The position numbers and the translations under genes were made by a program. Positions 1 to 10,012 of a stretch of 10,012 nt of DNA are shown here, piece after piece. The notes beneath the pieces are model-generated. The model worked only from the letters and a program-made list of their open reading frames with translations. It was not told the origin of the DNA and ran no database searches. Positions within the stretch are counted from its first letter, which is position 1; each line of letters starts with the position of its first letter. Origin of the DNA: a bacterium (lineage in GTDB: Bacteria; Arandabacterota; Arandabacteria; Arandabacterales; JALGWA01); NCBI GenBank assembly GCA_050125095.1, contig JASFEA010000118.1, positions 1-10,012 on the forward strand, in the 5' to 3' direction.

Positions 1-2
1 TA

Positions 3-1598
3 GCCCTCGCCGGCAAGCTCGATGAGAAAGACTACACGGTTTACTGCCTAATGGGCGACGGCGAGCAGCAGGAAGGCCAGATCTGGGAAGCCATAATGGA
101 AGCGGGCCACTACAAGCTCGACAACCTCATCGGCATACTGGACAAGAACCGCCTCCAGATCGACGGATGGGTCAAAGACGTAATGGACATCGACCCCATC
201 ATAGAGAAATACAAGGCATTCAACTGGGAAGTCATCGAATGCGACGGCCACAACATGAAGGAGATCCTGGACGCGCTCGAGAAGGCCAAGGCCGTGAAGG
301 GCAAGCCGACACTCATCGTGGCGCACTCGGTGAAGGGCAAGGGCGTGAGCTTCATGGAGGACGAGGCCGGCTGGCACGGCAAACCGCCGTCGGTCGAGCA
401 GATGGAGCAGGGTCTCAAGGAGCTGGGTCTGGAGGGCAAGATGCCCGTAGACGAGATGTTCAAGCTCGCAAACGACTACCAGGAAGCAGCGACGGCCAAG
501 CTTGAAGCCAAGATGCCCAAGTTCAGCAAGGACTACTTCTGGAATGCCGGCGAGCGGATGAAGTCCGACATGAGCCCCACGCGCAAGGGGTTCGGGCAGG
601 CGCTCTGCGACCTGGGCGACCAGCGGCAGATCGTGTGCCTGGGCGCCGACATCTCAGACTCCATCACCATAAGCCAGTTCTACAAGGGCTGTCCGGGCCG
701 TGACGAGCGCTTCATCAGCATGGGCATCGCCGAGGCAAGCGCCACGGGCGTGGCGGCGGGCCTGGCCAAGGAAGGCAAACTACCGGTGTTCGGAACCTAC
801 GGCGTATTCGCCTCCGGCCGAAACCTGGACCAGATCCGCACGACAGTCTGTTACGGCGAGTTCAGCGTGTTCATCGCGGGAGCCCATGGCGGCGTGTCGG
901 TCGGACCCGACGGCGCCACGCATCAGGCGCTGGAGGAGCTCTTCCAGATGTGCGGCCTTCCCAACATGAACGTGGAAGTACCCTGCGACTACTACGAGAC
1001 GCGCCGGGCGTCGGAGCATCTACTCTTCGATGTCAAGGGACCCAAGTACATCAGGTTCGCGCGCGAGGCGACACCGGCAGTCACAGACGAGAAGACCCCC
1101 TGGGTCTTCGGCAAGGCCAACGTGATCCGCTACCGCGGCGAGAAGGACAAGTTCGCCGACGCCTTCGAGCACGTCCTCGCCGAGAAGTACAAGGGCGAGA
1201 AAGAAGATATAGCCATAATAGCCTGCGGCCCGAGCGTGCCGGAAGCCATGCGCGCCGCCTATATCCTCAAGGAGGAGTACGGCATCGAGACGCGCATAGT
1301 GAACATGCACACCGTAAAGCCGCTGGATAAGGACACCATCGTCAGGGCGGCGAAAGACGTGAATGTAGTCGTCACGGCCGAGGAACATCAGGTCGGCGGC
1401 CTCGGGAACCTGGTGGCGGGTGTGCTGGCGGCGTCAAAAGACCTCTATGGAAAGCAGTTCATTCTGGGTATGATAGGAGTCCAGGACCGCTTCGGTGAAA
1501 GCGGCGCCCCCTGGGAGCTCGTCAAGGAGTTTGAGGTCAGCGCGGAACACATCGCCGCAAAGGCCAAGGAGCTCCACGACTTCGCCAAGAAGAAGTAG
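3..1598 (+). CDS. tkt: Transketolase (TPP-dependent), single-chain fusion of N- and C-terminal sections; 5' end lies outside the window
   Basis: The frame is open from position 3 (ALAGKLDEKDYTVYCLMGDGE...), so ATG51 is internal. TPP/Mg motif GDGEQQEG...ILDKN, plus VKGKG and WHGK. Pyrimidine-binding domain motifs MGIAE and GPDGATHQ. C-terminal domain with HTVKPLD, TAEEH..GGLG and DRFGESG. Stop TAG at 1596-1598. Confidence 0.93.
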   Translation, partial: ALAGKLDEKDYTVYCLMGDGEQQEGQIWEAIMEAGHYKLDNLIGILDKNRLQIDGWVKDVMDIDPIIEKYKAFNWEVIECDGHNMKEILDALEKAKAVKGKPTLIVAHSVKGKGVSFMEDEAGWHGKPPSVEQMEQGLKELGLEGKMPVDEMFKLANDYQEAATAKLEAKMPKFSKDYFWNAGERMKSDMSPTRKGFGQALCDLGDQRQIVCLGADISDSITISQFYKGCPGRDERFISMGIAEASATGVAAGLAKEGKLPVFGTYGVFASGRNLDQIRTTVCYGEFSVFIAGAHGGVSVGPDGATHQALEELFQMCGLPNMNVEVPCDYYETRRASEHLLFDVKGPKYIRFAREATPAVTDEKTPWVFGKANVIRYRGEKDKFADAFEHVLAEKYKGEKEDIAIIACGPSVPEAMRAAYILKEEYGIETRIVNMHTVKPLDKDTIVRAAKDVNVVVTAEEHQVGGLGNLVAGVLAASKDLYGKQFILGMIGVQDRFGESGAPWELVKEFEVSAEHIAAKAKELHDFAKKK

Positions 1599-1631
1599 CA
1601 ACGCCTCTCGAAAAGAGAGAAAGCGACATAT

Positions 1632-2867
1632 ATGCGATATACGCTTAGAGCGCAATCGGCGTCTGCCCCGGCAAAATACGCGGGCACGCTGATTGCGCTT
1701 GTCTTTTTGCTCGCTTCCGGCGCCCCCTGTGAGGAGCACTCGCCCGCCGGCGCCGATTCGGCGGCTTCGCCCGCAGCAGTGGCCGCGGTGCTCCCGCCGA
1801 CCATCGTCTCGATTGAGGACACTCCGAACGACGCCGGCACAGGCGTCGATATTACCTGGAAGGCATCCCCGTCCGAGACGCTCGAGCCGGGCAGCGTAAT
1901 AGAGTACAGCATATTGCGCGCGGAATCCGAAGACGGAGAGTTCGAGAGCGTGGGCACCGCCGTGGCCGGGTCCACAGCTTACTCGGACGGCGGCCTCGAG
2001 CCCGACAGGCCATACTGGTACAGGGTGGCCGCAGTCGGGCTGGAAGGAGAGGCGGAGTCCGAGACGGCCGGACCGGGCTACGGGCGCATGCAGTGGTTCG
2101 ACCACGGCCTCGAGAGCGTGCTCGCGCTCACCGTGCTCGTCTGCGCGCTGGTCATCTTCTCCATCGCCGTCGCGAGGCGCAAGTCGGGCGCGACTTATCT
2201 CCGCAAGCTCCCCGTGTTCGACGCCATTGACGAGGCCATCGGGCGCGCGACCGAGATGGGCAAGAAGGTGCTCTTCATCATGGGGCAGCTCGATGTCGAC
2301 GAGCCCCAGACGGTGGCCAGCATGAATATACTGGCGCGCGTGGCAGACCGCGCCGCGACCTACGGCACCAACCTCGACATCCCCTGCGTATGGCCCATGG
2401 CCATGAGCATGGCCCGCGAAACGGTCAAGGAGAGTTATCTCCGCGCCGGGAAGCCCGACGATTTCAACGAAGACGACATCTATTATATGACAACTGACCA
2501 GTTCGGTTACGTGGCCGGAGTCGACGGCATCATGATGCGCGACCGCCCGGCCGCCAACTTTTACCTGGGCGCGTTCTACGCCGAATCGCTTATATTCGCC
2601 GAGACGGGCTACACCACCGGAGCAATTCAGATTGCCGGGACGGCCGAGGTCGACCAGCTCCCCTTCTTCGTGGTGGCCTGCGACTATACGCTTATTGGAG
2701 AGGAGCTCTACGCTGCCGGGGCCTCGCTTTCGGGCGACCCCGTGCAGATCGGAAGCATCAGGGGCCAGGACATCGCCAAGGCCATCTTCGTCATAATGAT
2801 AATCGTCGGCGTAATCCTGAAGCTCATGGGCATAAACGCTTTCGAAGAGTGGCTGGCAATAGGATAG
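1632..2867 (+). CDS. Membrane protein: signal peptide + fibronectin type III-like domain + TM + DUF6754-like soluble domain + C-terminal TM
   Basis: Hydrophobic N-terminal signal (TLIALVFLLASG). FN3 pattern at aa ~55-150 (P..DTPND.G..V.ITW...Y.I.R...Y.D.GL.P...YWYRVAAV). TM at aa ~163-181 followed by RRK. Conserved-looking DAIDEAIGRATEMGK and QLPFFVVACDYTLIGEELYAA motifs that I associate with DUF6754. C-terminal TM AIFVIMIIVGVIL. The start codon is uncertain (weak SD). Confidence 0.8.
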   Translation: MRYTLRAQSASAPAKYAGTLIALVFLLASGAPCEEHSPAGADSAASPAAVAAVLPPTIVSIEDTPNDAGTGVDITWKASPSETLEPGSVIEYSILRAESEDGEFESVGTAVAGSTAYSDGGLEPDRPYWYRVAAVGLEGEAESETAGPGYGRMQWFDHGLESVLALTVLVCALVIFSIAVARRKSGATYLRKLPVFDAIDEAIGRATEMGKKVLFIMGQLDVDEPQTVASMNILARVADRAATYGTNLDIPCVWPMAMSMARETVKESYLRAGKPDDFNEDDIYYMTTDQFGYVAGVDGIMMRDRPAANFYLGAFYAESLIFAETGYTTGAIQIAGTAEVDQLPFFVVACDYTLIGEELYAAGASLSGDPVQIGSIRGQDIAKAIFVIMIIVGVILKLMGINAFEEWLAIG

Positions 2868-2876
2868 GAAGGTGAA

Positions 2877-3500
2877 ATGAGACTCAAGGTCCCCCTCGCA
2901 ATCATTTTCGTTATGGGGATCTTCACCATAGTCACCCATTTCATACCAGCCCAGCCGGTCGCCGAACTCAACCAGACCTTCAGGAACTGGTATATCGGCA
3001 TTATCTCGTTCTTCATCTTCTTAGGGACAGTCAACCTTGCCCGGTCCAACAGCGAGAAGATCAAGACCAGGGCGCGCGATTGGCGCTATTCCATCATACT
3101 TCTCATCGCGCTGGCCGTGATGCTGGTCGCGGGATTCTACCGTGGCCGCTCTAGCATGGATGAGGGCAGCCCGTTTATGTACCTTTACTTCAACGTGCAG
3201 TACCCGCTTGAGGCAACCATGTACTCGCTGCTGGCCTTCTTCATCACGTCGGCAGCCTTCCGGGCGTTCAGGGCGCGCAACAAGGAAGCCGTATTGCTTC
3301 TCGTCGCCGCGGTGCTGGTGATGCTCGGGAGGGTGCCCATCGGGTCGGCCATATGGGACGGTTTTCCCGATGTAACCGAGTGGATAATGAGCTTTCCCAA
3401 CGCGGCGGCCAAGAGGGGCATAAGGCTGGGCATCGATCTCGGCCTCATATCAATGGCGCTCCGCATGATACTCGGCATAGAGCGGTCTTACATGCAGTAG
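2877..3500 (+). CDS. Uncharacterised polytopic membrane protein (~6 hydrophobic segments)
   Basis: 207 aa, purine-rich SD region (AGGAAGGTG) just upstream of the ATG, 9 bp after the previous stop. Multiple TM-like stretches. Motifs ATMYSLLAFFITSAAFRAFR and KRGIRLGIDLG..LRMILGIER. Confidence 0.85.
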   Translation: MRLKVPLAIIFVMGIFTIVTHFIPAQPVAELNQTFRNWYIGIISFFIFLGTVNLARSNSEKIKTRARDWRYSIILLIALAVMLVAGFYRGRSSMDEGSPFMYLYFNVQYPLEATMYSLLAFFITSAAFRAFRARNKEAVLLLVAAVLVMLGRVPIGSAIWDGFPDVTEWIMSFPNAAAKRGIRLGIDLGLISMALRMILGIERSYMQ

Positions 3501-3516
3501 GAGGACTTAGGGCGTT

Positions 3517-4344
3517 TTGAGCGCATTCGAGAGAATCCAGAAACTCGACCGCCGCATTATATTCCTTACCGTGGCCGCGGCCGTGATTCTGCCGCTCTTC
3601 TTCCCGTTAAGGCTCCCGATCGACGTCACGCCCCCGGTGCAGCGGCTCTATGACGTCATAGAGGGGCTGCCCAAGGGCTCGGTGGTGCTCATCTCCGTAG
3701 ACTACGACCCCTCAGGCGCGCCCGAGCTCGACCCGGCCACGTGGTCCATAATGCGCCAGTGTTTCAGCAGGGATCTCAAAGTCTTCGTGATGGGACTGTG
3801 GGCGACCGGAGTTCCGCTGGGCATGAGAGCCCTCGAGAGGGTGGGTGCGGGCGAGTATGAGAAAGAATACGGCGTCGACTATGTCAACTTCGGATATATA
3901 CCCGGCGGGGCAATTGCCCTCGTCAACCTGGGAAGGGACGTGTACAACGTCTGCCGCGAGGACGTCTACGGAACGGCTGTCGAGGATATCCCCATGATGA
4001 AGAACATCAGGTCGGCCGGCGACTTCGGGCTCGTGATATCCATGTCAATGGGTGTGCCCGGCAGCGACCAGTGGATCTGGTACTACCACGCCCGCTACCG
4101 GGGGAACCTGGCAACGGCGCAGACGGCGATCGGCGCCCCCAAGTATTACCAGTACCTGCAGACCGGGCAGCTAGTTGGCCTCATCGGAGGCATGAAGGGA
4201 GCTGCCGAGTACGAGCGCCTGGTGAACAACTACGGTCTTGCCACGGTCGGCATGGACTCGCAGTCGGCCGCGCATATGCTCATCATCGCGTTTGTAGTGC
4301 TGGGCAACGTCATCTACTGGATCGAAAAGCGGAGGAAGAAGTAG
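3517..4344 (+). CDS. Uncharacterised membrane-anchored protein (N-terminal TM, ~220-aa alpha/beta soluble domain, C-terminal TM)
   Basis: TTG start preceded by AGGAGG (3499-3504). TM at aa ~14-30 and ~253-269, basic tail KRRKK. Motifs DYDPSGAPEL, YGVDYVNFGY and GQLVGLIGGMKGAAEYE. High-GC3 codon pattern. Confidence 0.85.
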   Translation: MSAFERIQKLDRRIIFLTVAAAVILPLFFPLRLPIDVTPPVQRLYDVIEGLPKGSVVLISVDYDPSGAPELDPATWSIMRQCFSRDLKVFVMGLWATGVPLGMRALERVGAGEYEKEYGVDYVNFGYIPGGAIALVNLGRDVYNVCREDVYGTAVEDIPMMKNIRSAGDFGLVISMSMGVPGSDQWIWYYHARYRGNLATAQTAIGAPKYYQYLQTGQLVGLIGGMKGAAEYERLVNNYGLATVGMDSQSAAHMLIIAFVVLGNVIYWIEKRRKK

Positions 4345-4345
4345 C

Positions 4346-4990
4346 GTGTTGATGACCGAAGGCATATGGGTATGGATAGCGGGCGTTCTCACGCTGGCCA
4401 TCTACTCCTTCCTCTACAAGGACAATCCGTTTTACAAGATAGCCGAGTACATCTTCGTGGGACTGTCGGCCGGGTACTGGGCGGTGTACCTCTTCTGGAA
4501 CTTCGCCTATCCCAATCTTTTCCAGCCGCTCGTCGCGGAGGGCAATTACTGGAACATCATCCCCATCATACTGGGATTCATGATGTTCACCCAGCTCTCG
4601 CGGCGCTCGGCCTGGCTCGTGAGGTTCCCGCTCACCTTCGTGCTGGGGGTCAGCCTGGGGCTGCAGCTTATCGCAGCCGTAGAGGGCGATCTCGTGCCGC
4701 AGCTGGCGGGCACCTTCGCGCCGTTCTCCAGGGGCGCCCTCTTCCATACATACGACTTCTGGACCTCAATCGGCTATATAGCGCTCCTCGTGGGGGTGCT
4801 CTCCACGCTGGTCTACTTCTTCTTCTCCAGGGAACACAAGGGAGTGTTCGGCGGCATAGCGCGCACCGGCGTCTTCTATCTCATGATCGCCTTCGGCGCG
4901 TCCTTCGGCTACACCGTGATGGCGCGTATATCGCTCCTGTTCGGGAGGGTTCACTTCATCTTCCACGACTGGCTGCACATAGTCAGATAA
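4346..4990 (+). CDS. Uncharacterised polytopic membrane protein (~6 TM, three internal helical-hairpin repeats)
   Basis: GTG start 1 bp after the previous stop, with SD GGAGG at 4331-4335 (in-frame TTG4349 and ATG4352 are alternatives). Very hydrophobic. Motif SFLYKDNPFYKIAE and three G-x-S-x-G-[YL] motifs. Confidence 0.85.
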   Translation: MLMTEGIWVWIAGVLTLAIYSFLYKDNPFYKIAEYIFVGLSAGYWAVYLFWNFAYPNLFQPLVAEGNYWNIIPIILGFMMFTQLSRRSAWLVRFPLTFVLGVSLGLQLIAAVEGDLVPQLAGTFAPFSRGALFHTYDFWTSIGYIALLVGVLSTLVYFFFSREHKGVFGGIARTGVFYLMIAFGASFGYTVMARISLLFGRVHFIFHDWLHIVR

Positions 4991-5006
4991 TACGGGGGCG
5001 GCTTAC

Positions 5007-5381
5007 GTGTACGCGCTCAGCAAAGAGGAATTCGACGAAGTCGTCACCGAGGTCATCGGCGGTCTCCCCAAGGAGTTCCGCGATCATATCGACAATGTCG
5101 AAGTGGTGGTGACCGACTACCCATCCCGTTCCATGATGCGGCGGGTGCCCCGCGGACATATGCTGCTGGGGCTGTACCAGGGCGTGCCGCAGAGGCAACG
5201 CGGCCCGTGGTACGGCGTGCGGCCCGTGATGCCCGACAGGATCACGCTCTTCAAGAAGAACATCGAGTCCATATGCTCGAGCCGCGAGGCCGTGCGTCAC
5301 AGGATCAGGAAGACGCTCCTCCACGAGATAGGGCATCACTTCTCGATGAGCGACAGCGACCTAAGGGGTATAGGCTGGTAG
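5007..5381 (+). CDS. Minimal zincin-like metallopeptidase family protein (Zincin_1-type)
   Basis: 124 aa, GTG start. Family motifs LP..F...IDNV.VVV.DYP, LLGLYQGVP, PDRITLF..NI and the zinc-binding HEIGHH (HExxH) near the C-terminus. Confidence 0.88.
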   Translation: MYALSKEEFDEVVTEVIGGLPKEFRDHIDNVEVVVTDYPSRSMMRRVPRGHMLLGLYQGVPQRQRGPWYGVRPVMPDRITLFKKNIESICSSREAVRHRIRKTLLHEIGHHFSMSDSDLRGIGW

Positions 5382-7262
5382 TCCCCCGTTCTTTATGTGC
5401 TGGTCAAGGAACTCCACCATCTTGCGGTAGTAAATCAGCCTGTTCGAGAGTTTGCCGATGCCATGCCCCTCATCCGGGAAAATGAGGGTCTCCACCGTGC
5501 CGCCCCGGGCCTTGATCGACCGGGCGATCTGTCGCGCCTCATCCACCGGTACGCGGGGGTCGTTTTCGCCATGCGCGATTAGAAGCGGCGCCCGGATCTG
5601 TTCGGCATTGGTGAGCGGAGAGATCTCGGTCAGGAACTCCTCGTCCGAAAGCGGGCCGTACTCGGCCTCGCGAATCGCCCGCCGGTAGTCGGCAGTGTTC
5701 TGGAGAAATGTGACGAAGTTGGATATTCCGACCGAGCAGATGCCGGCCCCGAATATCTCAGGATAATCCACCAGCGCCGCGAGCGTCACATAGCCGCCGT
5801 AACTCCCGCCCTTCACAGCGATCTTCCCGTATTCGGCGTAACCGTTGTCGACGAGCCACCTGGCGGCTTCGTATATGTCCTTGATGGAGTCCTTCCGCTT
5901 CTTGTAGTCGTCCATCTGCATATACTCGATGCCGTAACCCGAGCTGCCCCTTATGTTCGGGGCGATGATGCCGTAGCCGTTAAGGATTAGGTACTGGAAG
6001 TGGCGCTGGAAGCTCGGCCGGAACTGCGACTCCGGGCCGCCGTGCGCGTGTATGACGAACGGCAGCGGCTGCCCGTCCCAATCTTCAGGAACAAAGAGGA
6101 ATGCCGGGATCTCGAGATCGTCGAAAGACCGGTACTTGATGAGTTCCGGCTCAACGAACATCGTCCGGTCAACTCCCGCGTAGCTGGAGTGAGTCAGCTG
6201 CTTGAGCTCGCCGCCCGCGACGTCATACATCCAGACGTCGAACGTACGCGACGCGCTGGCGAATGCGAATACGAGCTTGCCATCGTCGGAGAATTGAAGC
6301 CCCTGGACTACGCCCTTCATATGGTCCAGGCTCCACTTGCGCCCCGTCCTCAGGTTCATTATGTACAGAAGGCCGTAGCCGTCCACGTTCTCGACCCAGG
6401 CAAGGAAGCGGGCGTCGCGCGTCATATCCATCTCCTCGGTCTCCCAGGGCGAGTCCGAGTTCAGAAACTCGATGTCATCGTCGCCTATCTTCATCCTCGC
6501 CACGCGCACCATGCCGTCCCTGTTCTTGTTGGTGAGGAAGTAGACATATTCGAGATCGGGGTCAAGCCGCCCGTTGACGAATACATAGTCCCCGCTGTGG
6601 TCGGTGAGATGCCGCTCCGCCTTGTTTGCGAGGTCGAGAAGGTAGAGGTCACTATCCACATTGGAAGAAAAATGCGTCATGAGGAGCCTGTTGCCGTCGG
6701 CGGAGATATCGGTGGCGTTGTTCCAGCCCTGCATGCTCGATATCTTGTCCACCCTCTTGTCCTCAATCGCGATGCGGTAGATGAAGAAGTCGGTCCCGTT
6801 CTCCTGGTTGGAGCGGAAGTAGACGTACTTCTCATCGGGGCTCCAGACGGGAGAGCCGTGGCGAACGCCCTCCGCGGCCTTCAGGGTGCTCACCGAGCCG
6901 GTGTTGGTGTCGAGAAGATAGAAGTCCGACTGCTCGCTGCCGCCTATGCTGGCGCCGACTATCATGTGATCGCCGGAGTACGAAGGTACGTAAAAATCGA
7001 TCCCATCCACGAACACAGTCAGCTGATAGGGCCAGCCGCTGGGCAGGATCTCGTACACCTGGTCAACGCCTGACATGAACGTATCGAAAAAGACGCGGTT
7101 CCCGTCTGCACTTATGGCGGGCTCGGACGCCGCTCCGATCTGCATGAAGGTCTCAATATCCGGTATGTTAAGCGAATCTCCCGGCGCCGGGTCGGCGATT
7201 ACGGGTAAGACCGAGAGCAACAGGCCCATGGAAAACGCGGTGAGACAAACTCTGATTGACAT
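5361..7262 (-). CDS. Secreted S9 family peptidase (prolyl oligopeptidase / acylaminoacyl-peptidase-like), beta-propeller + alpha/beta hydrolase
   Basis: I place the start at ATG 7262 (MSIRVCLTAFSMGLLLSVLPVIA, a signal peptide) because a perfect SD AAGGAGG lies just upstream, giving 633 aa. HGGP oxyanion motif, N.RGSSGYG, nucleophile GGSYGG, catalytic Asp in GENDPRV and His in DEGHG. The N-terminal half has propeller repeats (PVWSPD, DISADG). Confidence 0.93.
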   Translation of the reverse strand: MSIRVCLTAFSMGLLLSVLPVIADPAPGDSLNIPDIETFMQIGAASEPAISADGNRVFFDTFMSGVDQVYEILPSGWPYQLTVFVDGIDFYVPSYSGDHMIVGASIGGSEQSDFYLLDTNTGSVSTLKAAEGVRHGSPVWSPDEKYVYFRSNQENGTDFFIYRIAIEDKRVDKISSMQGWNNATDISADGNRLLMTHFSSNVDSDLYLLDLANKAERHLTDHSGDYVFVNGRLDPDLEYVYFLTNKNRDGMVRVARMKIGDDDIEFLNSDSPWETEEMDMTRDARFLAWVENVDGYGLLYIMNLRTGRKWSLDHMKGVVQGLQFSDDGKLVFAFASASRTFDVWMYDVAGGELKQLTHSSYAGVDRTMFVEPELIKYRSFDDLEIPAFLFVPEDWDGQPLPFVIHAHGGPESQFRPSFQRHFQYLILNGYGIIAPNIRGSSGYGIEYMQMDDYKKRKDSIKDIYEAARWLVDNGYAEYGKIAVKGGSYGGYVTLAALVDYPEIFGAGICSVGISNFVTFLQNTADYRRAIREAEYGPLSDEEFLTEISPLTNAEQIRAPLLIAHGENDPRVPVDEARQIARSIKARGGTVETLIFPDEGHGIGKLSNRLIYYRKMVEFLDQHIKNGGLPAYTP

Positions 7263-7308
7263 GCTCTCCCTCCTTGAGCGATATTCAGGGTGAAGGTCAA
7301 AACACCTT

Positions 7309-7336
7309 ATTCTACTACGATTCCGGCCCTGCGCAA
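7309..7336 (-). promoter_or_regulatory. Putative sigma70-type promoter for the S9 peptidase gene
   Basis: Minus strand reads TTGCGC-N16-TAGAAT (-35 at 7331-7336, -10 at 7309-7314), about 47 bp upstream of the ATG. Confidence 0.45.
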
Positions 7337-7358
7337 CACTTGAATATGGATGTGGGAT

Positions 7359-7979
7359 ATGGCTGAAAATGGGAGGAATACGGGACATGGCGGCATCGCG
7401 AAGAGGGGCAGGGTTCTCGCCGTGCTGGGAAGCCCGAGGCGGGACGGCAACAGCGACGTGCTCGCAGCCGAGTTCCTGAGGGGCGCGGCGGCGGCCGGCT
7501 ATGAACCCGCCTACATCATCCCGACCGACCTCGGTATGAGCCCGTGCGACGGCATGAACCAGTGCTTCAAGACGGGCAAATGCGTGATCCTAGACGGCAT
7601 GAATGAGGCCTATGAGGAAGTCCTCGGGGCCACCCACATTCTCATCGCGACGCCGGTCTATTTCATGGGGCCTCCCGGCTCGCTCAAGTCTTTCATCGAC
7701 CGCTTCCAGGCAGTGTGGGCCAGGTTTGAAATTCTCGGCGAGCCCAAACCCGATGCGGCCGGGCGCAAGGGCTTCGCCATCGTTGTCGGCGCCACGCCCG
7801 GTGAGGGGAAGATGTACAGGCCGACCGTGAGCATCATAAAGGCCTTCCTCAACGTGACGGGCTTCACCTATGCCGGCGAGATCATAGCAACGGGGCTCGA
7901 CGAGAAGGTGGAAGCAGGGGAAAGGAAAGATCTCCTGGCCAGGGCCTTCGAGGCGGGCAGGGAATTCGTCACTCGATAA
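7359..7979 (+). CDS. Flavodoxin-fold NAD(P)H-dependent FMN reductase / iron-sulfur flavoprotein (Isf)-like protein
   Basis: FMN phosphate loop VLGSPRRDGNS, ATPVYFMG..G.LKSFIDR, and an Isf-like Cys cluster (PCDGMNQCFKTGKC). The start is uncertain (ATG 7350 or 7359). Stop TAA at 7977-7979. Confidence 0.88.
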   Translation: MAENGRNTGHGGIAKRGRVLAVLGSPRRDGNSDVLAAEFLRGAAAAGYEPAYIIPTDLGMSPCDGMNQCFKTGKCVILDGMNEAYEEVLGATHILIATPVYFMGPPGSLKSFIDRFQAVWARFEILGEPKPDAAGRKGFAIVVGATPGEGKMYRPTVSIIKAFLNVTGFTYAGEIIATGLDEKVEAGERKDLLARAFEAGREFVTR

Positions 7980-8976
7980 CGAAGTTGAGATCCTCACCGC
8001 ATGCTCTGCACTTCCGGCCGTCCATGCCCACATTGCGCGAGGCGAAACCCGCGCGCTCCACGGCCTTCTGACCGCAGCCCGGACAATACGTGTGCTCGAG
8101 GTCGCCCGCGGGCAGATTGCCCGGGTAGATGTACTTGAGCCCGGCCCTCTTCCCTATCTCGACTGCGCCCATGATGGTGCCGGCCGGCGTCCACTCCTTG
8201 CCGGTCTGCTTGTACTGCGGGTGAAAACGCGAGATATGCCACGGGATATCTGGCGATACCGACGCTATGAAACCGGCTATGCTCTCAATCTCATCTTCGC
8301 TGTCGTTCTCACCCGGGATGAGGAGCGTGGTCAACTCCAGGAATATCCCCGCCCCGTGCATCAGCTCTATGGCCTTGAGGACAGGCGCGAGCCTGGCCCC
8401 GCAACGATCCCTGTAGAAGTCATCGCTGAATGACTTGAGGTCGACATTGGCGGCGTCCACCACGCCCGTCATTCTCTCGACCGCTTCGGGCGTCTGGTAG
8501 CCGTTGGTGACGAAGACGTTCTTGAGCCCGGCCTCATGAGCAAGCACGCCGCAGTCATAGGCGAACTCGAAGAATATTGTGGGCTCGGTGTACGTATAGG
8601 CGATGCTCGAGCAACCGGTGGACCGGGCCTCGGCGACCACCGCCTGCGGCGTGAAGTCCTCGCCATAGATCTGCCCGCCCTCATGCGACATCTGGCTGAT
8701 CTGCCAGTTCTGGCAGAAGTCACAGAAGAAGTTGCAGCCGGCCGTGGCGATGGAGAAGCTGCCCGTGCCCGGCAGAAAATGATAGAGGGGTTTCTTCTCG
8801 ATGGGGTCGACGCCGTGGGCGATGAGCTTGCCGTAGACCAGCGAGTGGAGTTTTCCGCCCTGGTTAAGCCGCACTCCGCACTTTCCCCGGGCCCCGTCAC
8901 TCACCCTGCAGCGATGCGCGCAGAGATGGCATACGGCGTCCCCGTCCCTGATTTCATAGAGCATAGCTTCTTTCAT
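7969..8976 (-). CDS. amrS: AmmeMemoRadiSam system radical SAM enzyme (PFL-activating-enzyme-like)
   Basis: Radical SAM motif CNFFCDFC followed by QNW.ISQ. N-terminal CHLCAHRC..GKCGVR, DPIEKKPLYHF, AYTYTEP, NVDLK, HISRFHP, and C-terminal CPGC...CRAC. SD AGGAGG upstream of ATG 8976. Confidence 0.92.
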   Translation of the reverse strand: MKEAMLYEIRDGDAVCHLCAHRCRVSDGARGKCGVRLNQGGKLHSLVYGKLIAHGVDPIEKKPLYHFLPGTGSFSIATAGCNFFCDFCQNWQISQMSHEGGQIYGEDFTPQAVVAEARSTGCSSIAYTYTEPTIFFEFAYDCGVLAHEAGLKNVFVTNGYQTPEAVERMTGVVDAANVDLKSFSDDFYRDRCGARLAPVLKAIELMHGAGIFLELTTLLIPGENDSEDEIESIAGFIASVSPDIPWHISRFHPQYKQTGKEWTPAGTIMGAVEIGKRAGLKYIYPGNLPAGDLEHTYCPGCGQKAVERAGFASRNVGMDGRKCRACGEDLNFVIE

Positions 8977-8999
8977 CGTCCCCTCCTGCTCCTGCGACT

Positions 9000-9028
9000 A
9001 TGATATTGGCCCCGGCATCCAATGTAAA
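9000..9028 (-). promoter_or_regulatory. Putative sigma70 promoter for amrS
   Basis: Minus strand reads TTTACA-N17-TATCAT (-35 at 9023-9028, -10 at 9000-9005). Each box matches consensus at 5/6 with ideal spacing. Confidence 0.65.
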
Positions 9029-9043
9029 GAAGCGAGACCCGAG

Positions 9044-9071
9044 TTGACATAGCGCACGGGCCTGATAATAT
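9044..9071 (+). promoter_or_regulatory. Putative sigma70 promoter for the ferritin-like gene
   Basis: Perfect -35 TTGACA (9044-9049), 16-bp spacer, extended -10 TG-a-TAATAT (9063-9071). Confidence 0.7.
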
Positions 9072-9102
9072 GGGCGTGATTGCATAAAATAAGGAGGAAG
9101 AG

Positions 9103-9555
9103 ATGAGCGGAACGCCGACCGAAGAGATCATCAAGTTCGCAATAGAGAAGGAAATAGAGGCGGCAGCCTTTTATGAGAACCTCGCCGGCAAGGTGAAAAA
9201 CCCGGTTATGAAGGACGCTGTGCTCTCGATGGCCGATGAAGAACGTAAGCATCAGCGTATACTCTCCAACCTCACGCCCAAGCAGGTAAGCTCCTTCACC
9301 GAACCCGATATAGCCGACTTCAAGATAAGCGACTACATGGTTGAGCCCCCCGTGACCGAGGACATCAAGTACCCCGACCTTCTCGTGCTCGCCATGAAGC
9401 GGGAGGAGAAAGCGCATGATATGTACGCCGAGCTCGAAAAGCGCGCGGCCGACGACGCGACTCGCAAAGTTTTCGCGCTGCTTAAGACCGAGGAGCTCAA
9501 GCACAAGCGCAAGCTGGAGAGCGAGTACGAAGACCGTGTTCTGGAGGGCTATTGA
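9103..9555 (+). CDS. Ferritin-like / rubrerythrin-family di-iron protein lacking a rubredoxin domain
   Basis: SD AAGGAGG upstream. Two duplicated halves with di-iron ligands: AIEKEIEAAAFYENLA...EERKH and AMKREEKAHDMYAEL...EELKH. No cysteines. Confidence 0.88.
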   Translation: MSGTPTEEIIKFAIEKEIEAAAFYENLAGKVKNPVMKDAVLSMADEERKHQRILSNLTPKQVSSFTEPDIADFKISDYMVEPPVTEDIKYPDLLVLAMKREEKAHDMYAELEKRAADDATRKVFALLKTEELKHKRKLESEYEDRVLEGY

Positions 9556-9574
9556 GCATCCCATTCGGGGCGTG

Positions 9575-9750
9575 GGTGCGTGCTGAGACCCGCCCTTCCG
9601 ACGTCACCGGCGGATGAGCATTCTGAGATATGGCCTTCTGAGACCTGAGCATTCCGAGACCTGGCCTTCTGAGGCAATGGCGAATGTGCATACCTGGATC
9701 TGGGCCCTTCTGACCCCAGGCGATTGTGCATTTCAAGACCTGACCCCTTA
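9575..9750. repeat. Degenerate intergenic tandem repeat, ~5 units of 31-40 bp built from a 15-16 bp subunit
   Basis: Units start at 9575, 9615, 9646, 9685 and 9725, with consensus about TGWGCATTCNGAGACCTGGCCTTCTGA. The core subunit GCMTTCYGAGACMTG occurs four times in tandem at 9618-9679. Confidence 0.8.
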
Positions 9751-9776
9751 ACGTTCGCATAAAAGTGTGTTATAAT
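9748..9776 (+). promoter_or_regulatory. Strong sigma70-type promoter for the downstream secreted protein
   Basis: Perfect TATAAT at 9771-9776 preceded by a TGTG-n extended -10 element. TTAACG lies at 9748-9753 with a 17-bp spacer, in an AT-rich patch. Confidence 0.72.
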
Positions 9777-9848
9777 ATGCCTGGGTGATCGCATTACTCA
9801 GGCACTCGCCTGATGTCGGCCTTATACTCCTAGCGGAGGGCTGCACGC

Positions 9849-10012
9849 ATGTATCCAAGGAAGGGCATACCCTTGTTCCTAATAATGGCGCTGGCGGTGG
9901 GGCTGCCGGCTTTTTCAATGGTGGAAAACCGCTCCACGAGACCGCCTACACCGCCAACGCTCCAGTCATATCAACACATAATGTCTCCGCCATTGCTCTC
10001 GTCCGGGGGCGA
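9849..10012 (+). CDS. N-terminus of a probable secreted protein (runs off the window; not in the ORF track)
   Basis: SD GGAGG at 9835-9839 and ATG 9849. The frame is open to the end: MYPRKGIPLFLIMALAVGLPAFSMVENRSTRPPTPPTLQSYQHIMSPPLLSSGG. It has a basic n-region, a hydrophobic h-region and an A-F-S candidate cleavage site. Confidence 0.7.
   Translation, partial: MYPRKGIPLFLIMALAVGLPAFSMVENRSTRPPTPPTLQSYQHIMSPPLLSSGG

Follow-up and report, generated by a model that had tools for sequence, protein, structure and literature searches.

A conserved four-gene membrane cassette with DUF6754 and Rossmann-like subunits, and its candidate GlmL-like ATPase

We analysed a stretch of 10,012 nucleotides (the window; positions 1 to 10,012 of the forward strand of contig JASFEA010000118.1, assembly GCA_050125095.1, from a bacterium of the Arandabacterota) in which four consecutive genes form a cassette encoding the membrane proteins P1, P2, P3 and P4. 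An earlier note, made from the letters of the window and a list of its open reading frames, had read P1 and P3 as distant paralogues inserted in opposite membrane orientation, as in alternating-access secondary transporters. We favour, with moderate confidence, the reading that P1 and P3 are two distinct bitopic subunits in a single conserved inner-membrane module of four proteins, with the DUF6754 domain of P1 coupling to a GlmL-like ATPase and P3 facing outward. The features of the cassette are listed below in window coordinates (TM, transmembrane helix; aa, amino acids).

1632-2867, plus strand: P1, 411 aa, with leader, FN3 ectodomain, TM1, predicted cytoplasmic DUF6754 domain and TM2 (open reading frame; Pfam PF20539 at residues 153-407)
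1779-2096, plus strand: FN3 domain of P1 (aa ~50-155), predicted to lie outside the cytoplasm
2118-2174, plus strand: P1 TM1 (aa 163-181), followed by ARRKSGATYLRK (Kyte-Doolittle 2.96; core in the family-mean hydropathy; AlphaFold2 helix 158-184)
2184-2771, plus strand: soluble DUF6754 part of P1 (aa 185-380), predicted cytoplasmic (lysine plus arginine richer on the domain side in 97 of 99 members)
2772-2828, plus strand: P1 TM2 (aa 381-399; hydropathy of P1 and family mean)
2877-3500, plus strand: P2, 207 aa, six hydrophobic cores, N-terminus predicted inside (hydropathy, charge bias)
3517-4344, plus strand: P3, 275 aa, with basic N-tail containing D-R-R, TM1, predicted outward Rossmann-like domain, TM2 and EKRRKK tail
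3547-3555, plus strand: D11-R12-R13 of P3, twin arginine just before TM1 (alignment of 98 members)
3553-3609, plus strand: P3 TM1 (aa 13-31; hydropathy of P3 and family mean)
3616-4251, plus strand: soluble domain of P3 (aa 34-245), predicted periplasmic (lysine plus arginine richer on the two tails in 95 of 98 members)
4267-4323, plus strand: P3 TM2 (aa 251-269; hydropathy of P3 and family mean)
4346-4990, plus strand: P4, 214 aa, six hydrophobic cores, N-terminus weakly predicted outside (hydropathy, charge bias)

Gaps of 9, 16 and 1 nucleotides separate P1 from P2, P2 from P3 and P3 from P4, and no plus-strand terminator-like site was found between 1400 and 5600 of the window. Scanning one genome per species, we found 598 stretches that encode a P3 relative and kept 80 loci with 105 copies of P3. 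The flank was sufficient for 82 of these copies, which sit in 62 loci, and all 82 show the order P1-P2-P3-P4 on one strand; two full cassettes stand in 20 loci. By their record names, the cassettes come from Eisenbacteria, WOR-3, Zixibacteria, Latescibacterota, Ignavibacteria, Stahlbacteria, TA06, Cloacimonadota, Coatesbacteria and others. In the genome of the window (3.35 Mb in 268 contigs) there are five DUF6754 genes and four P3 genes. The fifth DUF6754 gene is a lone FN3 plus DUF6754 gene of 381 aa on another contig (C13:9487-10632, minus strand, locus L093); tblastn found no P2, P3 or P4 on that contig, and the genes downstream of the DUF6754 gene are on the opposite strand.

Residues 153-407 of P1 match Pfam DUF6754 (PF20539) with an E value of 7.3e-109 and 363.3 bits, compared to a gathering cut-off of 27. 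This is a catalogued but uncharacterised family and covers P1 only within the cassette; P2, P3 and P4 have nothing above cut-off in Pfam or NCBIfam. Literature searches found no paper mentioning DUF6754, PF20539 or PF13941 (the family of the GlmL-like ATPase described below), and nothing relevant on GlmL with actin or a membrane complex. The AlphaFold2 model of P1 has an overall predicted local distance difference test (pLDDT) score of 67.5 and a confident FN3 domain; the ectodomain has an FN3 fold. Only FN3 chains emerged when the full model was used for a fold search, and only FN3 matches from a sequence-profile search of the PDB; a search of the ESM Atlas with the DUF6754 part returned no usable named match. 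The first half of DUF6754 is modelled with moderate confidence as helix 195-209, strand 212-216, helix 225-244, strand 248-252, helix 255-271, strand 283-285 and helix 288-300, whereas the second half is poorly modelled, with pLDDT below 50 at residues 295-343 and 345-356. Within this second half, residues ~299-356 (window 2526-2700) have pLDDT values of 26-46 and contain many invariant residues, including C350-D-Y-T; this part may require partner subunits for folding or may dip into the membrane. A GRATEMGK segment in DUF6754 was considered as a P-loop and ruled out, as it sits within a helix that precedes a strand and its spacing does not fit.

P3 is modelled with much higher confidence (pLDDT 90.3, predicted template modelling score 0.85) as helix, strand, helix, strand, helix, strand, helices, three strand-helix units and a last long helix. 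Its domain matches Rossmann-type chains in structure, in a flat list that has no outstanding relative and identities of 4-14%; the single Foldseek match at an E value of 0.001 or less is OtsA (template modelling score 0.32), a generic one. Among the generic Rossmann-like domains with which P3 was compared are short-chain dehydrogenases, the KTN/RCK domains of TrkA/KtrA and MTH777 (1kjn), and the KTN/RCK matches are no better than those to short-chain dehydrogenases and other Rossmann chains. Unlike these generic domains, the P3 domain is predicted to lie outside the cytoplasm, and unlike NAD(P)-binding Rossmann enzymes it has SVDYDPSGAPE in place of GxGxxG in the loop after the first strand; across the alignment of its family this loop reads S-x-D-Y-D-P-(S/G)-x-x-P-E, again without GxGxxG. 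A Pfam scan of P3 gave 0 families at E values up to 1, and PF20539 gave 0 matches at E values up to 10 against 36 P3 relatives. All 30 ESM Atlas matches of P3 fall in clusters that have no common Pfam family, and its one PDB sequence-profile match is at chance level (E value of 0.18). The GldG-like auxiliary proteins of ATP-binding cassette (ABC) type 2 systems, which consist of a helix, a periplasmic alpha/beta domain and a second helix, show the same helix-domain-helix anchoring of an outward alpha/beta domain, whereas P3 matches no Pfam family.

The N-tail of P3 follows the pattern D-R-R-x-I-[F/Y], with the aspartate in 96, the first arginine in 97 and the second in 98 of the 98 members (both in 97), and TatC is encoded in the window's genome (216 bits). 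Because of this near-invariant twin arginine and the TatC gene, the N-terminus of P3 might tentatively be viewed as a twin-arginine translocation (Tat) type signal anchor. Three longer forms of P3 were found (P0241, P0242 and P0243), none of them fused to P1, P2 or P4. One long relative has an insert of ~245 residues between the domain and the last helix, and two distant P3-like proteins (hmmsearch E values of ~1e-29) have N-terminal extensions of ~360-400 residues before the helix. The extension of P0242 starts with a zinc-ribbon-like Cys-X2-Cys...Cys-X2-Cys, followed by a Pro/Glu-rich tract, and would fit a cytoplasmic N-terminus of P3-like proteins; P0242 has no twin arginine just before its helix.

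P1 and P3 share a build in which two hydrophobic helices flank ~200-210 residues. The layout of transmembrane helix, alpha/beta domain and transmembrane helix that had been described for both is borne out by hydropathy, by the 99 P1 and 98 P3 relatives, whose family-mean hydropathy has the same two cores and no third, and by the AlphaFold2 models. The charged flanks named in the earlier note are likewise present (ARRKSG..LRK after TM1 of P1, MSAFERIQKLDRR at the start of P3 and EKRRKK at its end), as are the segments that it quoted (at residues 195 and 360 of P1 and 44 and 228 of P3). In P1, with a leader and the FN3 domain standing before TM1, the mean count of lysine plus arginine is 6.45 on the side of the DUF6754 domain compared to 1.97 and 0.84 on the other side, which predicts the domain inside in 97 of 99 members. 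In P3, the domain flanks have a mean of 2.68 and the two tails 2.80 and 3.58, predicting the domain outside in 95 of 98. The charge bias also puts the N-terminus of P2 inside in 98 of 99 members and that of P4 outside in 58, inside in 18 and at a tie in 21 of 97 members. The two globular domains thus very probably face opposite sides of the membrane, and the opposite orientation proposed earlier is upheld as a prediction from charge bias. For both soluble domains to lie on the same side, the charge-bias prediction would have to be wrong for one of them, which we consider highly improbable: it would need either a cytoplasmic FN3 domain behind a leader or P3 tails with ~6 lysines plus arginines outside in 95 of 98 members, and the KTN/RCK matches of P3 do not stand out among its Rossmann matches.

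The link to a candidate motor comes from gene neighbourhoods and co-occurrence. PF13941, the family of GlmL-like actin-fold ATPases, has two matches in the window's genome, and none of 14 control genomes has a match above cut-off. Within the one phylum compared (16 genomes, each at least 80% complete), PF20539 (1-6 matches) and PF13941 (1-3 matches) are both present in 16 of 16 genomes. In 10 of them (G001-G004, G006-G008, G010, G011 and G013), a PF13941 match ends 1.86-2.10 kb upstream of a DUF6754 match on the same contig and strand; in G014 the two lie on different large contigs, and in the other five, among them the window's genome, they are unlinked or cut by contig ends. One linked locus (L098, in G010) encodes, tightly packed on one strand, a protein of 135 aa, a GlmL-like protein of 604 aa (PF13941, E value of 1.5e-124), a protein of 377 aa and then P1-P2-P3-P4; the 377-aa protein, which we refer to as the adaptor, has a weak RnfC_N barrel-sandwich match (E value of 6e-4, below cut-off). 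The window's genome has a GlmL-like gene (601 aa) and a 374-aa gene at the end of contig C189. It also encodes, at C207:1191-3977 (minus strand, locus L100), a 928-aa protein with a PF13941 part (E value of 2.3e-99) and a weak NqrA_N-like barrel-sandwich match at residues 727-773, in which ATPase and adaptor appear to be fused, the two being separate genes on C189. Beyond the phylum, the adaptor and/or the ATPase is encoded in the upstream flank, of which ~4 kb was available, in 24 of the 80 loci from other phyla, and on the cassette strand in 22. In L066 and L073, the GlmL-like and adaptor genes are on the strand opposite to the cassettes (divergent).

These data bear on a second rival, by which the four proteins would be a self-contained, ion-coupled secondary transporter, their domains gates or ligand sites and the ATPase linkage incidental. 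The cassette of the window and three others in its genome have no adjacent ATPase gene, their neighbours are catabolic enzymes (glycogen debranching enzyme, GHL10, peptidases and transketolase), and several copies per genome would be as expected for carriers. We nevertheless regard such a carrier as quite unlikely, given PF13941 in 16 of 16 cassette-bearing genomes compared to 0 of 14 controls, operon links in 10 of those 16 genomes and at 22-24 of the 80 loci, and no similarity to transporter families in Pfam, NCBIfam or PDB sequences. The earlier note's comparison with alternating-access secondary carriers is weak, as relatives of the cassette have genomic ties to an actin-fold ATPase; moreover, the inverted repeats of secondary carriers concern membrane bundles and not soluble domains. 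A two-sided, ATPase-linked membrane machine is likelier than a self-contained secondary carrier made of mirrored duplicates.

In such a machine, P1 would expose FN3 on the outer face and place the highly conserved alpha/beta domain of DUF6754 in the cytoplasm, and P3 would hold its Rossmann-like domain outside by means of the N-terminal signal anchor with the twin arginine and the C-terminal helix with the basic tail, whereas P2 and P4, with six helices each, would provide the membrane core or path. The GlmL-like actin-fold ATPase and its adaptor, encoded once or twice per genome, would serve several paralogous cassettes by docking on the cytoplasmic DUF6754 domain and coupling to the module there; contact with the cargo or ligand would fall to the parts outside, the P3 domain and FN3. 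What the data show is the layout, the strict cassette, the lack of sequence similarity between P1 and P3, the charge bias and the linkage of the genes to the ATPase; we infer the sidedness in vivo, the docking, the use of ATP and transport itself. Consistent with such a division, the mean identity between paralogous cassettes (12 within-locus pairs) is 52% for the P1 domain, 47% for P2, 44% for P3 and 47% for P4, with P1 the most conserved in 8 of the 12 pairs and P3 the least conserved in 8. A conserved cytoplasmic domain and a variable outward domain would offer a first working plan of where a motor could dock and where cargo could bind. Complex prediction gave 0.80, 0.78 and 0.79 for P1 (residues 150-411), P2 and P4 with P3 as partner, 0.00 and 0.00 with the partner replaced and 0.70 with chain 1 replaced, values that carry no conclusion on binding.

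The arrangement recalls energy-coupling factor (ECF) type modular importers, in which several S components share one energising module. It is an analogy of function only: here, about five paralogous cassettes would face one or two ATPase genes, and the candidate motor has an actin fold (PF13941) as opposed to the ABC fold of ECF-type importers, with no sequence relation between them. P2 and P4 have no match in a PDB sequence-profile search and none to Rnf-Nqr families at E values up to 1. Judged by its sequences, the four-protein module lies outside the known kinds, because no subunit matches a studied transporter, an Rnf/Nqr protein or a transporter sequence in the PDB; this label applies to the module and not to the paralogy claim. 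We consider the cassette worth attention as it is strictly conserved across many mostly uncultured phyla, with several copies in small genomes, while none of its subunits matches a studied system.

The proposal that P1 and P3 are distant paralogues found no support in any sequence test (BLASTP, hhalign, Pfam, hidden Markov model (HMM) searches or shuffles). The two pairs of segments that had been lined up by eye score 9 and 11 (BLOSUM62), and 200 of 200 shuffles of P3 hold an equal or better window. Smith-Waterman alignment of the soluble parts of P1 and P3 scores 33, compared to 31.9 ± 5.3 for shuffles, 184 of 500 of which reach it. The best BLASTP match has an E value of 0.21 in the wrong register, with the first helix of P1 on the last helix of P3. 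The profile-profile comparison proposed in the earlier note as a check (hhalign) gave a probability of 0.47% for alignments of 32 and 36 sequences, 0.6% for larger ones of 99 and 98 sequences, both drawn from the 80 genome loci, and 0.3% for P2 against P4. HMM cross-searches between P1 and P3 have a median of -0.5 bits, compared to -1.3 to -2.0 for reversed or shuffled decoys, and gapped profile-profile Smith-Waterman alignment of the soluble parts scores 17.7 compared to 16.1 ± 2.3, a score reached by 22 of 100 column shuffles. At the profile level, the two blocks of the first by-eye pair rank 232 of 68,340 and 477 of 67,818 windows. Among ungapped 25-column diagonals, the register of the second pair scores highest (15.6, ranks 1-5 and 8 of 59,738) and places Q379, K383 and G393 of P1 on Q249, H253 and G263 of P3; because the unrelated pairing of P1 TM1 with P3 TM2 scores 14.8, the signal reflects the pairing of two hydrophobic helices. 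In these comparisons, any relatedness of P1 and P3 is undetectable, and a duplication of one gene is not demonstrated. Their common helix-domain-helix build would most simply reflect the generic anchoring of a Rossmann-like domain at a membrane complex, and is no proof of duplication.

Several points nonetheless weigh against our reading of P1 and P3 as different subunits, and most of them speak for an ancient two-gene duplication inserted upside down, from which P1 and P3, and perhaps P2 and P4, would descend with their similarity decayed and matching domains left on each face of the membrane. P1 and P3 are built alike, both with two helices; in the AlphaFold2 models, their domains begin with seven secondary-structure elements in matching order, and 28 residues lie between TM1 and the first strand in both. 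If a two-gene unit had been duplicated and inverted, bitopic and polytopic proteins would be expected to alternate, each flipped against its counterpart; the order bitopic-polytopic-bitopic-polytopic is found in all 82 cassettes tested, and the predicted N-termini are out for P1 and in for P2 compared to in for P3 and out for P4. The conserved glutamine, followed at +4 by lysine or histidine and at +14 by glycine, before and in the last helix of P1 and P3 lies on the best-scoring diagonal. Sequence resemblance is frequently lost between the inverted repeats of known carriers, so the negative results of the sequence comparisons count only weakly against an ancient duplication. The poorly modelled residues 295-356 of P1 are also the most conserved stretch of DUF6754, which precludes a fold comparison with P3, and the models leave room for re-entrant segments that DUF6754 may contain. 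The sidedness of both domains is a prediction, the trend in identity among paralogues is modest, and the neighbours of the window's cassette are genes for a transketolase and a zincin-like peptidase, with no ATPase gene adjacent.

We still consider such an inverted duplication unlikely. Beside the absence of a signal from BLASTP, hhalign (also for P2 against P4), the Pfam scan, the HMM cross-searches and the shuffles, an unrelated helix pairing scores about as high as the motif diagonal, an alternating gene order has a chance of 1 in 3, the orientation of P4 is weak (58 compared to 18, with 21 ties) and the second halves of the models differ, with three strands and no helices in P1, at low confidence, compared to strand-helix repeats in P3. 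Inverted-topology paralogue pairs such as RnfA/RnfE, NqrD/NqrE and those of the EmrE type resemble P1/P3 in having neighbouring genes, equal helix numbers and opposite charge bias; these pairs, however, are polytopic, free of large soluble domains and plainly homologous in sequence, whereas P1 and P3 have large soluble domains and no detectable homology. P2 and P4 each have six hydrophobic cores in ~210 residues with opposite predicted N-terminal sides, and helices 4-6 of P2 and 3-5 of P4, which have the same orientation, agree in their loop lengths (7 and 26).

The two ideas could also be combined, with the module as a relic of an inverted duplication of a gene pair for a two-helix and a six-helix protein, forming a pseudo-symmetric heterotetramer of 16 helices with a Rossmann-like domain per face and a shared actin-fold ATPase. 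We hold this to be very unlikely; if true, a mirror-image heterotetramer driven by a GlmL-like ATPase would represent a class of transporter for which no counterpart has been described. The existence of mirrored duplicates, which is unproven, would bear on the evolution of two-sided membrane complexes.

Around the cassettes of the window's genome, whose neighbours are a glycogen debranching enzyme, GHL10, M28 and S9 peptidases, an HpaB-like oxygenase and a transketolase, the flanking genes have no common partner, and a scan of 19 flanking proteins turned up no ABC ATPase. Two genes border the cassette in the window.

51-1598: transketolase gene, followed by five plus-strand genes (P1 to P4 and the zincin-like peptidase gene)
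5007-5381, plus strand: zincin-like peptidase gene, downstream of P4

A zincin-like peptidase gene lies 3' of P4 in six of the six closest loci (L001-L006), and a fused transketolase gene lies 5' of P1 in five of these, the sixth (L001) having no upstream flank; this context is not present in the loci of other phyla. Further downstream (window 5361-9555) are an S9 prolyl-oligopeptidase-type gene and a radical S-adenosylmethionine gene, both on the minus strand, and a rubrerythrin-like gene on the plus strand. In the same region, the start of a plus-strand gene for an FMN-reductase-like protein of flavodoxin fold overlaps the S9 prolyl-oligopeptidase-type gene by 39 nucleotides.

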